Shown in pieces: positions 16,781 to 54,940 of a stretch of DNA of 64,000 nt. A program made the translations under genes and the position numbers. Source of the DNA: Eledone cirrhosa (lineage: Eukaryota). The first letter of the stretch is position 1. Every line of letters begins with the position of its first letter. Location: assembly GCA_964016885.1 (NCBI GenBank), contig OZ024741.1, positions 84,816,001 through 84,880,000 on the forward strand, given 5' to 3'. The notes under the pieces are model-generated. The model was not told where the DNA came from, did no database searches, and saw only the letters and a list, made by a program, of their open reading frames with translations.

Positions 16781-19094
16781 TCTATTTTATATTAATATAT
16801 AAGTTTACCTTACTGAAATTGTTTCTTTCATTCACTGTAAATGTATTACGTGTGGCCGATTAGATAAGATCAGGTCGCATTCGTTTGGTTCTGGGCAAGT
16901 GTGAATTATTATAACCTCGGGTCGATCCATTACTTGAAGGGAAATTGGGTAGACTTAAACAGTTTGGAAGCCCGTCTGATGGGCTGAACCAGTAATTCAA
17001 AGAGCCAGCCTTTGAATTAAAAGTGTCACGTTGAATCTCTCTGCGAATTACCTTATGGATACACGTGCCTGTGAGATACTCGGCCACATGCACGTTTATT
17101 GCATAATCAGGCTGTTCTGTTTTACAAACAGCTGAAATATATATCATCGAAATTGATGGAGATCCATTTATTTTCATGTTCATTATAACATATATGTGTG
17201 TAGACTGATTATGTTTCTCACATAAATGTTTTTATTGTACTATAAAATGTTATTCTGATAATAATGAGCCTCATGGCGATTATTATTTTAGTTACCTTTG
17301 GTAACGGAAATATATATTTTACCAATCAGTTTCGTCAAATTTATGTCTGTATGTTGTGAAGGAGCGTGGCTTAATTGTTAAATTGTTAGTCATGATCATA
17401 AGGTCATGACTTTGAATCTCGGACCGAAAGTTGTGTTGTGTCCACTCAGCTGAAAAAAAAGGAGTTGCAGTCTTACTGGTGCCAAGCAGTGTCGTGGTTT
17501 GCCATTCCCTTGGACAACCCCAGTGGTAGGGTAGGGTGTGACTGGCATACATGCGCCTCTGCTGGTCTATCACAAAACTCCTTGCCTCATCTTGTGACTC
17601 GGAGAGCAACTTTCCAGATGCCATATATTTATGTGTGTGTGTTGTGGGTGTGCGTGAGTGTGTGTGTGCATGTATGGATGTGTTTGCGTGAGTATCCGGA
17701 AGACATCTTAGATGTAGTTGAAAAGTATTGTTAATCTGGTGACCTGTTCAGCAGTGGTGTTGGCTGCAACAAAATAGGAGTAACCAGATAAAAAATTACG
17801 CGGAAACATTTCAAAGATCTATTGCCTCTAGTGTTAACATAGATTTGTTTAATTTACTCACTCAGAAGGAAGAGCGGTACGAAGTGTAATGCTACATTGT
17901 AGAGACATGTGGGCTGTGAATATAGACAATCTGAGAAGATTAAAAGGAAATTAAGAGAGAATGCTCCGCTGAATGTGTGATGTGTGTATATATGAACGAC
18001 AAAACACAAATAAATTAAGATAAAATAAAATGAATATAAAATGTATAAAATGCAACGTGAAGGTAAAGAAGCTACATTGGTAGAGATATATGTAACATAT
18101 AGATGTGAGTTGCATGATAAATTGCTGAACACTGAAAGTGGATGGGATTTCTGGAACAGAATAACATGAGCGGTTTGGGAGAAGAGACGTCTCATGATAC
18201 TTAATATCAAGCAAATGACAAAAGACCACGAGAATTGGTTATACGATGTGATGGAAAATCCGTACTCAATCGTGCAGGCAGGGTGAAACAAATCTGTTTT
18301 ATATGAAATTATACATAATCTATTTATCTATATGTAATAAATGTGCATAGCATATATATACAAATATGTATATATATATATATATATATATGTGTGTGTG
18401 TATGTGTGTACGTATATGTATGTGTGTGTATAAATACATATATATATATATATATATATATATATATATTCACACATATATATATATAAATATTGAAGAC
18501 CAGTTAAGTCTGAAATGCATCGACGGTCATCCCCCTTGCTTCTGCTGGACACCACCAGAGGCCGTTAGCCCCGGTGTTCTTTTGTATGACTACGGGTTCT
18601 TAAATGTTTACCCTATAAACATACCGTGTTTCTTTAGAAATACGAAATTTCTATACATATCTGTATACAGCTATGCTTGAAGCTAAATCTTATTTATATA
18701 TATATATATACAAATGGAAGTTCAGTAGAATCGAAGCTCCGGCTGCGGACAAGCTAACGAATGCAATCTGGAATGTGCAACTAAGCACTCAATAAGGTAG
18801 TTTCACCTTAGAGTAATAACATACGTTTAGACAGCTTGACGAATTGAAGACTGCGACCGGTGAACCAGCCGTAAGGACCAAAGCAGCGAGAAAACCAACT
18901 GTGTATGAGTGTGTGTGTGTGTGTGTGTGTGTGTGTGTGTGTGTGTGTGTGAGTGTGTGTGTGTGCGTGTGTGTGTGTGTGTGTATGTGTGTGTGGGTGG
19001 GGGGGTTGTGTGTGTGTGTGTGTGTGAGTGTGTGTGTGTGTGTGTGTGTGTGTGTGTGTGTGTGTGTTTGCGTATATAGATAGATAGATAGATA

Positions 19095-19454
19095 TATTTC
19101 TTTATTAGCCACAGGGGCACAAAAGAAGGGGACAAATACAAAGGGGGAAGTTTACATACAATAAAAACGTGTAAAATGTTATCACAGATGGAATTTAAAA
19201 GTTGGTCAATTTTCCCCAATAGAGGGAGACAGTTTATATGGGTAACACATACTCCCGAAAAAAAATGTGCAACCCTCATCTCCAGGAGTACGAAGAGCTT
19301 GTACTCCTTTCCTCTCCTCCTCCTTTTCCTCAACCTACAGGCTGATATAGAGAGAAGGCCCATTCACTCGGGCCATTCTCGCCACTTTCACCCACCTTTC
19401 ATAAAACTTGCTGGGGTACAGCACCTCTCTCTCCATCCTGATTCTTCTTCCAAA
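19095..19454 (-). mobile_element. 5'-truncated Tx1 copy (ORF2 C-terminus and 3' UTR only)
   Basis: Matches the 3' end of copy A (19476-19860); flanked by (GATA)n at 19078-19094 and 19456-19475. Confidence 0.85.
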
Positions 19455-19743
19455 TAGATAGATAGATAGATAGATATGTTTCTTTTATTTGCCACCAGGG
19501 CATCAAAAGTGGGACAAGTACAATGGGGGGAGTTTACAAAACAAGGCGTCCTCAATATGGAGGAGGCAATAACAAAATATAAAAATAAAATAAAATATAA
19601 CAAAAAAAATTAAAATTTATAACAAAATCCTCAATAGAGAGGAGGCGCCTTGGGGGGTCGCACACACCCCCGAAAAAAGTGTGCAACCTTTCTCCTCAGG
19701 AGCACAGAGATGGGGTGCTACCTCGTTCCTTCCTCTTTTCCAC

Positions 19744-52300: not shown

Positions 52301-52600
52301 GCGACCAGTCTCAAGGCCGCACCTTCACTACTGCCAACGTCTAGCACCAACAAACGACCCTCCGGGTCCGAGTGAACGACCTGTACGGCGAGACCCAGGT
52401 GTTTTTCCAGCAGTACGACAACCCCACCCCCACCTCCAGGTTGACAGAGAGATGCATGCACCTCAAAGTCATCGAAGGTAGGGGCCAGCTGCCGCACGAC
52501 GCTGATCCGAGTCTCACAGATAACCATTACATTTATACCACGTGACCTGAGGTCATTTAGAAGCTTTGCTTGCTTCCAAGTTGAGCCCAGGCCACGTGCA
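49349..52600 (-). pseudogene. Tx1 copy B ORF2, with frameshifts and an in-frame deletion in RT
   Basis: GDWN and SYLDRFLV (APE); QGCPLS and YADD (RT). The segment IHDNLHLMRY..DQSKAFDRVDH seen in copy A is absent (AIPSRS joins directly to AAVFRG). Confidence 0.85.
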
Positions 52601-54451
52601 TGGGGTCGGGGGTGTTGGATGAAGGGGTGTCTTGTGGTGGTGTGGGGTCGTCAGTGTGTGGTGGGGTTGGGGTGTTTGGAGTTGTGTTGGGGAGGGGAAG
52701 GGGAGGGGGAAAGCTTTTTAGTAGGACGCGGTTTATGGGTTTGACAGAGGGTGGTCCTACGTCCTCCTTAAAATCCTTTTTTAGTTTTTGGTAGAGGTTC
52801 ATTGGGATCTTTATTAATTTTAAATGTGGGTAGTTTTCTGAAGAAACAAAGTTTACACCTTCGGTTTGTACCGAAGGATTATTGTTTATGAGTTCATTTA
52901 ATTTATTATTGTTTCTGTTGATGTAAGTATAGTGTAATGTCTTTTTTTCGGATGGTGTGAGTGTTTCGAAGAGGGGAGGGGAAGGTTTGGTTTTGTTTGT
53001 TGCTGGAGGGGTGTTTTGTGTTTTGTTGGATTGTGTTGACATTTGGGTAGGGGTTGTTTGGCCTTGTGTGTTTTGCACATGTTTTCTTTTTTTCCTTTTA
53101 ATCTGTCTGAAGGACTCCGTTTCTTCCTCTGAATTCGTTGGGTTATCTTCAGTGTTGGAGGGAAGAGGTATGTTTGCTGGTAATGTTTCCGTGTTGGTTT
53201 TCTTTGTGGGGGAGATGGATGTCACTATGTTAGACTGTGTTGTGTGTTGTGGCTGCGGTGGTTGTGTTGTTTTATTGAGTGAGGGGTATTTTGTTTTGGG
53301 GTAATGTGTTGTGACTGTTTGTGTTGTGGTGGTGGTGTAGTTTTACTGAGAGACGGGTTGGGTGGGACTGAGTTTTGTTGTTTGTTTATCTGTTGTGGTG
53401 GTGGAGCTGGTGTTGGTAGCAGGGTTTTATTTTTGTTGAGTTGGGGACAAGCCGCCTTCAGGTGCCCTCTGCCTGCACAGATATTACAGGACGGCCTTCT
53501 CCCCTCCACGCTAATGTTTATATACCCGTGGCCCTCTAATAGGATTCTGTCGGGTATTTGGGCGATGCGTTCAGGCTTCATTTGCACTACAAGTTCTATA
53601 CCTGTTCCACTGAACGCATTGCCTGTGGTTTTCCCAATGGAAATCACGTTGTCATTCGCTGGAGCGATGAAGCCAGCTATGAGCCAGCAGTAGTCCACAT
53701 CTGGCATCATTGCATCCAGCCATATGCGCTGAGTTCTTTTACCCATATGAGATGGATAAAAGGTAAAATTTGTCGAACGAATCGGTGACAAAGCACATGT
53801 TTTTGCCGCCGATTCGTTCTTCATAATAATCGCTAGGCTTCCATACAGTCTGTCTCTTCTTATGAAAGTGGTTTCATTAAGTACTTCTGTAAGTACTACT
53901 TTGATTTCTGTTTGTGTTGGCTGTTGAGGTTTTTTAGAAATGTTGTTGATGGTGCGGAAAACGACCGTCCGACATTAAATGTCTTTGGTGAGTTCTTGAG
54001 GCATTTTTACCGATAAAATACCATTTTCCCCTTCAGTTATGTATTGTTTGGCGTCTGTAATTCTTTGTGCCACATCTGAAATATTTTCAGGTATATATGT
54101 CAAAGATTTCTTTGTTGTTTGTGCAAATGAAATATTATTGGTGTTGACTTTGTCGTCTGCTTTGCTTTTTGTTATGATGTTGTTTTCAAATGTTATTTTT
54201 GTGTTTGTCGTGTCTTTGTTTGTGGTATTAATATTGTCATGCAATTTTTCAAATTTTTTTTTTTCGTTGTTGGAATCAATGTCCAGATTTGTGTTTTCGT
54301 CATTTTTCTCCGCAGATTCGTCTGTTTTTATTTTATTTTTTCTTTCCTTCTCTATGACGTTAGTTGGGAAGGAAGGGGGGACTAAAGCGTGCGAGCTTAC
54401 AACTCTTACCGCTGTCCCCCCACCACTATTTTCGTTAGCTTCGTTTAACAT
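52557..54451 (-). pseudogene. Tx1 copy B ORF1, interrupted
   Basis: Three ORF pieces homologous to copy A ORF1 (SFAQT, RIAQIP.R, VEGRRPSC, NPSVQTEG.NF). Confidence 0.8.
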
Positions 54452-54940
54452 TTCTGTCAGACGATTGAAATATTTTATGCCACAAAATTTTTAAAAACAG
54501 GTTTTTCACCCCTGGGAAGGGCAAAGATGAGCTGACCCACCACCTGACAGTTCAGACGGGGGGTCAAGCTACACAATAGTATCAAAATTAAAATTGAACT
54601 TACAAAATTTCCGCAATAAATTTGAACAAAACTTCTGCGCGAAGTGAATTACATCTACGCTGTAGAACAGACGACAGCTAAATTATAATAGATAGATAGA
54701 TAGATAGATAGATAGATAGATAGATAGATAGATAGATAGATAGATAGATAGATAGATAGATAGATAGATAGATAGATAGATAGATAGATATCTGTGTATA
54801 TGTGTCTGTGTGTTTCTGTATATATATATATATATAAATGAATGAAGTAATTCCGTCGGAAAAGTCCAGGAAAAAAGAGTGCTCTATGTAAGCAACAGAG
54901 CTTAATTATTATTATGTAATAAACAACATAAGGCAATTAT

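Follow-up and report, generated by a model that had tools for sequence, protein, structure and literature searches.

Why should five copies of a retrotransposon, all in one orientation, stand between runs of a single tetranucleotide repeat? The question is raised by a 64-kb stretch of the genome of the cephalopod Eledone cirrhosa (GenBank assembly GCA_964016885.1, contig OZ024741.1, positions 84,816,001 to 84,880,000 of the forward strand), analyzed here as a whole and referred to as the window, with positions counted from its first base. The flanking repeat is (GATA)n on the plus strand and (TATC)n in the sense of the element. We consider it highly probable that the five copies belong to young families of long interspersed nuclear elements (LINEs) of the L1 group, probably of Tx1 type, that insert in one orientation between (TATC)n repeats; the predicted cause is a probable nick by the endonuclease in the GATA strand, the free end of which would anneal to UAUC repeats terminating the element RNA and so prime reverse transcription.

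All five copies lie on the minus strand, each between GATA runs at both ends, an arrangement that the earlier note on this sequence had described and that is borne out in every copy. Coordinates of copies and of their open reading frames (ORFs) refer to the minus strand and those of repeat runs to the plus strand. Copy 1 is a 5′-truncated 3′ end of ~360 nt (19096-19455). It lies between a (GATA)4 run at its 3′ junction (19079-19094) and a (GATA)5 run (19457-19476) that forms both the 5′ flank of copy 1 and the 3′ tail of copy 2. Copy 2 is full length (~5.67 kb, 19477-25150), with an open ORF1 of 589 amino acids from stop to stop (23209-24978), an ORF2 in pieces (22705-23208, 22044-22763, 20828-21316 and 19744-20667), and an (AGAT)21 array as its 5′ flank (25152-25235). 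The second stack begins with an imperfect (AGAT)8 run (48264-48295) at the 3′ junction of copy 3, a 5′-truncated 3′ end of 381 nt (48296-48676). A (GATA)14 array (48675-48730) separates it from copy 4, another 5′-truncated 3′ end, of 345 nt (48731-49075), and an (AGAT)15 array (49075-49134) separates copy 4 from copy 5. Copy 5 is full length (5553 nt, 49135-54687) and has an (ATAG)26 array as its 5′ flank (54688-54790). Its 3′ untranslated region (UTR) spans ~49135-49348; ORF2 lies in pieces at 49349-51085 (reverse transcriptase, RT, and C-terminus), 51144-51545, 51533-52153 and 52090-52650 (endonuclease), and ORF1 at 52557-53342, 53225-53974 and 53975-54490, both being disrupted by frame changes.

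Read in the sense of the element, each window copy ends in ...AATAAA(G)AA, with TATC units 3-9 bases on and no poly(A), and TATC units also precede every copy. The DNA beyond the two outer arrays (25236 onward and 54791 onward) is unrelated, so these arrays are not the tails of further copies. The motif GATAGATAGATA occurs 73 times in the window, always on the plus strand, against 0.03 occurrences expected from shuffled sequence. Its matches form eight runs, seven of which touch an element; the exception is a (GATA)5 run at 38901-38920, the sole GATA run of the window without an adjoining element. The earlier note took the copies for a single family. Their 3′ ends are 70-88% identical in pairwise comparison and their lengths differ, and they represent five subfamilies instead. 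With 3′ ends just 70-88% identical, the window stacks are separate insertions, and local duplication is excluded.

The same association holds across the host genome (3.0 Gb searched). Junctions were scored in the 30 best-scoring loci for each of five queries; these samples are not random, and flanks play no part in the ranking. The 3′ measure was at least two TATC units within 18 nt of the last AATA, and the 5′ measure at least two units within 25 nt of a full-length 5′ end. TATC follows the 3′ end in 23/30 loci of the copy-5 family, in 25/29 of the copy-4 family (one locus without an anchor was dropped) and in 12/30 of the copy-3 family, or 12/23 if one insertion duplicated eightfold is counted once. 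Among full-length 5′ ends of the copy-5 family, 26/30 have at least two units, 22/30 at least four and 15/30 at least ten, while 25/30 in the copy-2 family have at least two and all 30 at least one. Random non-element positions in the same loci, scored in either orientation, give 21/5100 (0.41%) and 26/5100 (0.51%), and the binomial P is below 1e-23 for every junction set against this control. An antisense run of at least two GATA units is found at none of the 90 3′ junctions and none of the 60 5′ flanks, and none of the 90 3′ junctions carries a poly(A) tail.

The GATA preference proposed in the earlier note is therefore real, and it is orientation-specific and common to at least six families. 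Many 5′ flanks other than GATA had been named there as the observation that would speak against it; flanks lacking any TATC number 2/30 in the copy-5 family and 0/30 in the copy-2 family. Kojima's working definition of target specificity, as given in PMC4494074, asks that over 20% of flanks share a sequence type, a level that the GATA families exceed by a wide margin. The preference is strong, not absolute.

The eightfold insertion mentioned above is a truncated copy-3-family copy of ~1030 nt (L101, L104, L113, L114, L115, L118, L119 and L125). It is present at least eight times at 93-95% identity, with identical flanks and the target-site duplication CTATATATTT, and sits in a larger repeat or segmental duplication. 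At several junctions, including the downstream flanks of L017, L095 and L121, TATC passes into (TC)n, and in the upstream flank of L045 and L062 the 3′ end of a relative (…GGCAAATAAATAGAACGT) leads through a single TATC unit into an extended (TC)n.

The protein architecture was read from an intact copy of the copy-5 family at locus L063 (G000:C28:136009200-136015700), which has an open ORF1 of 607 amino acids and an open ORF2 of 1149. Pfam finds in ORF2 a reverse transcriptase (RVT_1, 82.6 bits, E 4e-23) and an N-terminal apurinic/apyrimidinic endonuclease (APE) domain (Exo_endo_phos, 30.7 bits, E 3e-7, cut-off 24.5). A C-terminal zf-RVT match is weak (E 1.6e-5; 25.9 bits, below the cut-off of 27.5). 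The best relative among solved structures is human L1 ORF2p (PDB 8sxt_A, E 1.5e-47, residues 13-862), while R2 proteins score only ~1e-16 in the same search, and the alignment to L1 ORF2p contains the endonuclease motifs CET, GDWN, SYLD and TDH as well as the polymerase motif YADD. ORF1 lies upstream of ORF2, measures 589-626 amino acids and has a weak CCHC zinc knuckle in Pfam; it has no match among solved structures. The hallmarks of a LINE are present in 5′-truncated copies and in target-site duplications of 10-19 bp. On these predicted proteins the element classifies as an APE-type LINE of the L1 group, with a putative GATA-specific APE endonuclease.

Sequence comparison places the element at the level of the L1 group, and it probably belongs to the Tx1 type. 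L1-Tx1 is the only L1-group class in the list of recently active LINEs of Octopus vulgaris in PMC13282606, and the cephalopod repeat papers searched give L1-Tx1 as a class only. Among named proteins, the nearest relative comes from Argonauta hians, an octopod (61% identity); 65% is reached by an unnamed NCBI protein, and the next tier attains at most 43%. The 3′ UTR contains conserved hairpins, one of them directly before AATAAA. Six of 34 pairs show a compensatory change, with a covariation term near zero (+0.35), and the hairpins hint at strict recognition of the 3′ end. Metagenome contigs hold relatives at 24-30% identity (at most 53% over short segments) that lack TATC arrays, one of them, L174, ending in A28; being far from the GATA lineage, they say little about it.

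The copy-5 family is young and abundant. In a search with the 3′ UTR of copy 5, the scored matches (the best 40 of 969 first-look candidates) are all 99-100% identical to the query, and across ~1.8 kb the family retains 97-98.6% identity. In further searches the first-look candidates numbered 1515, 2615, 2349 and 1299. The at least six GATA families that share the orientation-specific association have ORF2 proteins 83-95% identical. One of them, found with a distant relative as query, has an ORF2 83% identical to that of L063; all 39 of its scored matches lack stops, and TATC follows the 3′ end in 10/10 loci. Contigs of a run assigned to a second organism match the 3′ region of copy 5 at 90-99% identity, and the copy-5 family or a close relative is probably common to another taxon.

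Target-site duplications that start with TATC are seen at L003 (13 bp, TATCTATCTCCCC), L010 (18 bp, TATCTTTATTCCCCCTCC), L015 (19 bp), L087 (17 bp) and L062 (10 bp, TATCTATGTT), in truncated and full-length copies alike. This start places the first nick at a TATC unit. At L003, L009 and L015 the array runs on upstream of the duplication, which shows that the array predates the insertion, and the target at L010 held one TATC unit only, so a single unit can suffice. The repeat also arrives with the element. At the 3′ junction of L062 ~8 units are new relative to the target, and L109 has 3.5 units against two in the target. Fragments of 10-25 nt from the extreme 3′ end of the element lie inside TATC arrays at L165, L012 and L110; these tail-only fragments look like abortive insertions that would lengthen arrays. 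The earlier note had set a genomic target and an element-encoded tail against each other as alternatives. TATC is indeed the target, but the two are not exclusive, and TATC is both target and tail.

At the 3′ end the junction register shifts, with GAAATA meeting TATC at some junctions and GAAA meeting TCTATC at others. The 5′ joint often lies at a TATC microhomology: copy 1 begins directly after the internal ...ATATCAC motif of its subfamily, copy 4 begins at the same internal point, and L070 likewise starts directly after ...ATATCAC.

A mechanism in which the RNA tail pairs with the target would run as follows. Since only 3-9 nt separate AATAAA from the repeat, the transcript would be cleaved and polyadenylated within the array that follows. 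Having read through AATAAA, the RNA would end in UAUC units taken from the flank of its own source copy, in the form AAUAAAGAAAU(A)(UAUC)n with poly(A) behind it, and under read-through UAUC units, rather than an immediate poly(A), would follow AATAAAGAA in the RNA. On the bottom strand the endonuclease would cut after GATA. The 3′ end set free in this way would anneal to UAUC units, so that reverse transcription would begin upstream of any poly(A). A second cut, in the top strand, would lie 10-19 bp downstream, and the 5′ end of the element would often join at a TATC microhomology. Every insertion would restore the target that it used, and abortive events would start new arrays or make existing ones longer. 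The pairing model leads to a missing poly(A), a variable junction register, added units and a repeat on both sides of the element, and a repeat on both sides leads in turn to head-to-tail stacking.

Stacking, which the earlier note had described in the window, is common genome-wide. At least 9/30 full-length copies of the copy-5 family and at least 10/30 of the copy-2 family stand directly behind the tail of another member, and stacks elsewhere in the genome join different families. The association is equally visible from the side of the arrays. (GATA)10 occurs at 45,266 + 47,748 overlapping positions in the genome. In a sample of the first 22 distinct arrays of (GATA)≥10 along contig C1 (0-25 Mb), a lineage member directly adjoins 13 (blastn), with TATC always in the sense of the element, and three more (L145, L160 and L167) adjoin divergent members seen by tblastn only. 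Elements thus occupy 16/22 sampled long GATA arrays, about three quarters. Of the other six, the array at L165 has a tail fragment of ~10 nt inside it, the one at L128 adjoins a 3′-end fragment in the opposite orientation, and four (L139, L148, L151 and L156) are without trace of an element. Because most of the sampled long GATA arrays adjoin elements, the finding explains a feature of the genome.

A number of observations weigh against the reading of a GATA-targeting LINE that primes on its own repeat tail. Most samples were drawn from best-scoring loci and not at random. The statement in the earlier note that no copy sits in a TA array holds in the window and fails genome-wide, where 5/90 3′ junctions (L005, L024, L029, L099 and L103) enter (TA)n directly; L099 was assigned by eye, and L013 was excluded because it has no TA junction. 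Two of the 30 full-length copies of the copy-5 family, L044 and L058, have no TATC upstream. The duplications at L124 (AATCTTATATATATAGAA) and in the L101 group contain no TATC and carry near matches only, AATCTTAT and CTATAT, respectively. At L063, ~100 nt of extra TATC array lie between a duplication-like match (tatctatctatctagctgtatatct) and the 5′ end; this extra array is not foreseen by the simple model and may reflect an earlier tail-only event or repeat formed at the 5′ joint. At L128 (G000:C1, around 5362007), a 3′-end fragment in the opposite orientation lies beside a (TATC)13 array. It reads as the reverse complement of a lineage 3′ end without its last bases, with a sense ORF2 piece 200 nt further; the simple model leaves this rearranged or inverted insertion unexplained, and it is a possible exception to the fixed orientation. 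Contigs of three further runs show only high word depth and short pieces without transcript ends, and a UAUC tail on transcripts was not observed. Finally, pairing between a UAUC tail and the nicked target and specificity of the endonuclease fit the data equally well.

The same genome holds a sister LINE lineage (loci L228-L259), whose ORF2 is 65.6-65.8% identical to that of L063. All 40 of its scored matches have open frames of 1143-1150 amino acids; in the example L251, the element lies at 2074-7893 of the reverse-complemented locus. Its 3′ end (...CCCTTGTGGCCAATAAATGAAATC) is homologous to that of the GATA lineage, but (ATT)n follows in 25/25 cases, with at least four units in 23/25. All 20 of the 5′ ends have at least four ATT units upstream, about half of these being tails of other copies, and this lineage stacks as well. 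The GATA families are one branch of a microsatellite-targeting clade in which the repeat after the shared 3′ end is lineage-specific.

A SINE (short interspersed nuclear element) with a tRNA-like body (…GGTCTGAGTTCAAATCC…) is found in the flanks of L251, L231, L233, L238, L242 and L249. It ends, much as the LINE does, in …GGCCTTGTACCAATAGCAGAA and then passes into (ATT)n, and it may be a partner mobilized by the ATT lineage or simply a favored target.

The alternative that survives best supposes that the target is set only by the repeat tail of the RNA pairing with any nicked DNA, with a loose endonuclease and a target identity inherited through the flank. Consistent with this, the repeat lies downstream of AATAAA and outside the conserved body of the element, the junction register varies, the (TA)n of the occasional insertions matches the ATATA with which the copy-5 family ends, and the sister lineage joins a homologous 3′ end to a different repeat. 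A target inherited with the tail should drift more than is seen, however, since the target is stable across at least six GATA families and across the ATT subfamilies. Between the two lineages, identity is 59% in the endonuclease and 78% in the RT core, a gap that speaks only weakly against pairing alone, since faster evolution is usual for endonuclease domains. On balance, pairing as the sole determinant appears rather unlikely.

Less probable still, and in our view improbable, is that the repeats are purely an element-borne tail, that insertion is blind to GATA arrays, and that the 5′ TATC derives from older tails or from integration. The units added at insertion (L062 and L109), the tail-only fragments and the extra array at the 5′ end of L063 all point to a tail carried by the element; at least 9/30 and 10/30 of the upstream arrays are visibly tails of other members, and 16/22 long arrays adjoin a member. 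Yet the DNA that adjoins many 5′ arrays is unique and holds no older element (L039, L041, L047, L048, L051, L052, L209, L222, L224 and L226), and at L010, L087 and L003 the TATC with which the duplication starts was present in the target beforehand, short sites that are not arrays among them. Four of the 22 long arrays have no trace of an element, and landing in older tails would itself be TATC recognition. For elements that encode their own tail, 5′ flanks unrelated to the tail are expected, whereas TATC is seen at 26/30 and 25/30.

That the arrays grew only once the element was in place, through slippage of an A/T-rich tail as happens in poly(A) tails and without target preference, has very little likelihood. 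Microsatellites are known to arise from the tails of LINEs and SINEs, according to PMC3812793, but copies 97-100% identical to each other already have arrays, arrays stand at 5′ flanks too, TATC lies within the duplications, and the orientation is fixed. Slippage growth was rejected, since neither the counts at 5′ flanks nor the target-site duplications agree with it. The least credible origin for the stacks, tandem or segmental duplication of a single insertion together with its flanks, finds a parallel in the eight loci that share one truncated copy-3-family insertion with both flanks and by L035, L054 and L055, which share one flank, but was rejected given 3′ ends that lack near-identity (70-88%), the unequal lengths of the window copies, and stacks elsewhere that combine different families.

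A broader reading of the targeting LINEs is offered tentatively, as a joint proposition that is less likely than not to hold in all its parts. The tail would not be encoded by the element but copied from the source flank by read-through, so that target identity would be inherited outside the element sequence. Insertions at a single TATC and abortive tail-only events would seed and lengthen arrays, making most long (GATA)n arrays products of the elements. A target switch, as between TATC and the (ATT)n of the sister lineage, would start with one mis-insertion and later be fixed by a change in the endonuclease.

Comparison with known LINEs helps to place these families. Human L1 matches a T-rich nick to its poly(A) tail. 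The elements described here resemble it in domain order, target-site duplications and 5′ truncation, and in the proposed match between nicked strand and RNA tail; unlike L1, they lack poly(A), have a tetranucleotide repeat as both tail and target, and show a strong site preference. LINEs of the L2, CR1 and RTE types have short repeat tails and strict 3′-end recognition. They share with the GATA lineage the repeat tail without poly(A), conserved hairpins in the 3′ UTR and a variable number of tail units. We know of no report that LINEs of these types need the tail repeat at the target, whereas the GATA lineage has it in the 5′ flank as well as within the target-site duplications. RTE elements commonly have microsatellite tails, according to PMC9115989.

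The closest parallels in targeting behavior, though not necessarily in phylogeny, are Kibi, at (TC)n, and Koshi, at (TTC)n, Tx1-clade LINEs of teleost fish (Kojima & Fujiwara 2004, cited in PMC4494074), and the crocodilian Tx1 families that target (TTCC)n/(TTTC)n (PMC4494074). Like Kibi and Koshi, the present families are APE-type LINEs with a microsatellite at both flanks, and the TATC and ATT pair mirrors the varied family targets of their wider clade. They differ from Kibi, Koshi and the crocodilian families in the target unit, GATA/TATC, and in a host that is no vertebrate. Other microsatellite-specific LINEs belong to other clades and have other target units: Waldo, at (ACAY)n, and Mino, at (AC)n, to the R1 clade, and Dong, at (TAA)n, to the R4 clade (PMC3812793), while Togen, at (TG)n, belongs to the NeSL group, and some HERO families are listed with it (PMC4640811). 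Dong's target and the sister lineage's (ATT)n fall into one repeat class. Dong and Togen have a restriction-like endonuclease, in contrast to the APE type here.

The window is very rich in microsatellites beyond the GATA runs, with 112 Tandem Repeats Finder (TRF) rows in 64 kb, mostly TA, CA and GA arrays, the longest reaching ~1.2 kb (60836-62024). A near-perfect inverted repeat with arms of ~39 nt (GGAAGTAGAGGATCTAC…TTTCGGCT) lies at ~25310-25415, directly before an (AT)76 array, and resembles a miniature inverted-repeat transposable element (MITE) or hairpin element.

The families are real microsatellite-specific LINEs of the L1 group, and GATA adds a target unit to a known class. The targets of microsatellite-specific APE LINEs in the literature searched are (TC)n, (TTC)n, (TTCC)n/(TTTC)n, (AC)n and (ACAY)n, with GATA unlisted; no GATA-targeting LINE was found in full-text literature, a scope outside which Repbase, Dfam and Figure 3 and the supplements of PMC4494074 lie. 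In the host species, the association of elements with arrays will affect the design of microsatellite markers and genome assembly. The question of target choice also bears on engineered site-specific retrotransposon insertion. Two active sister lineages with many open frames and homologous 3′ ends, one at TATC and the other at ATT, form a natural pair, useful for asking whether the endonuclease or RNA-tail pairing sets the target of a LINE and how target choice evolves.

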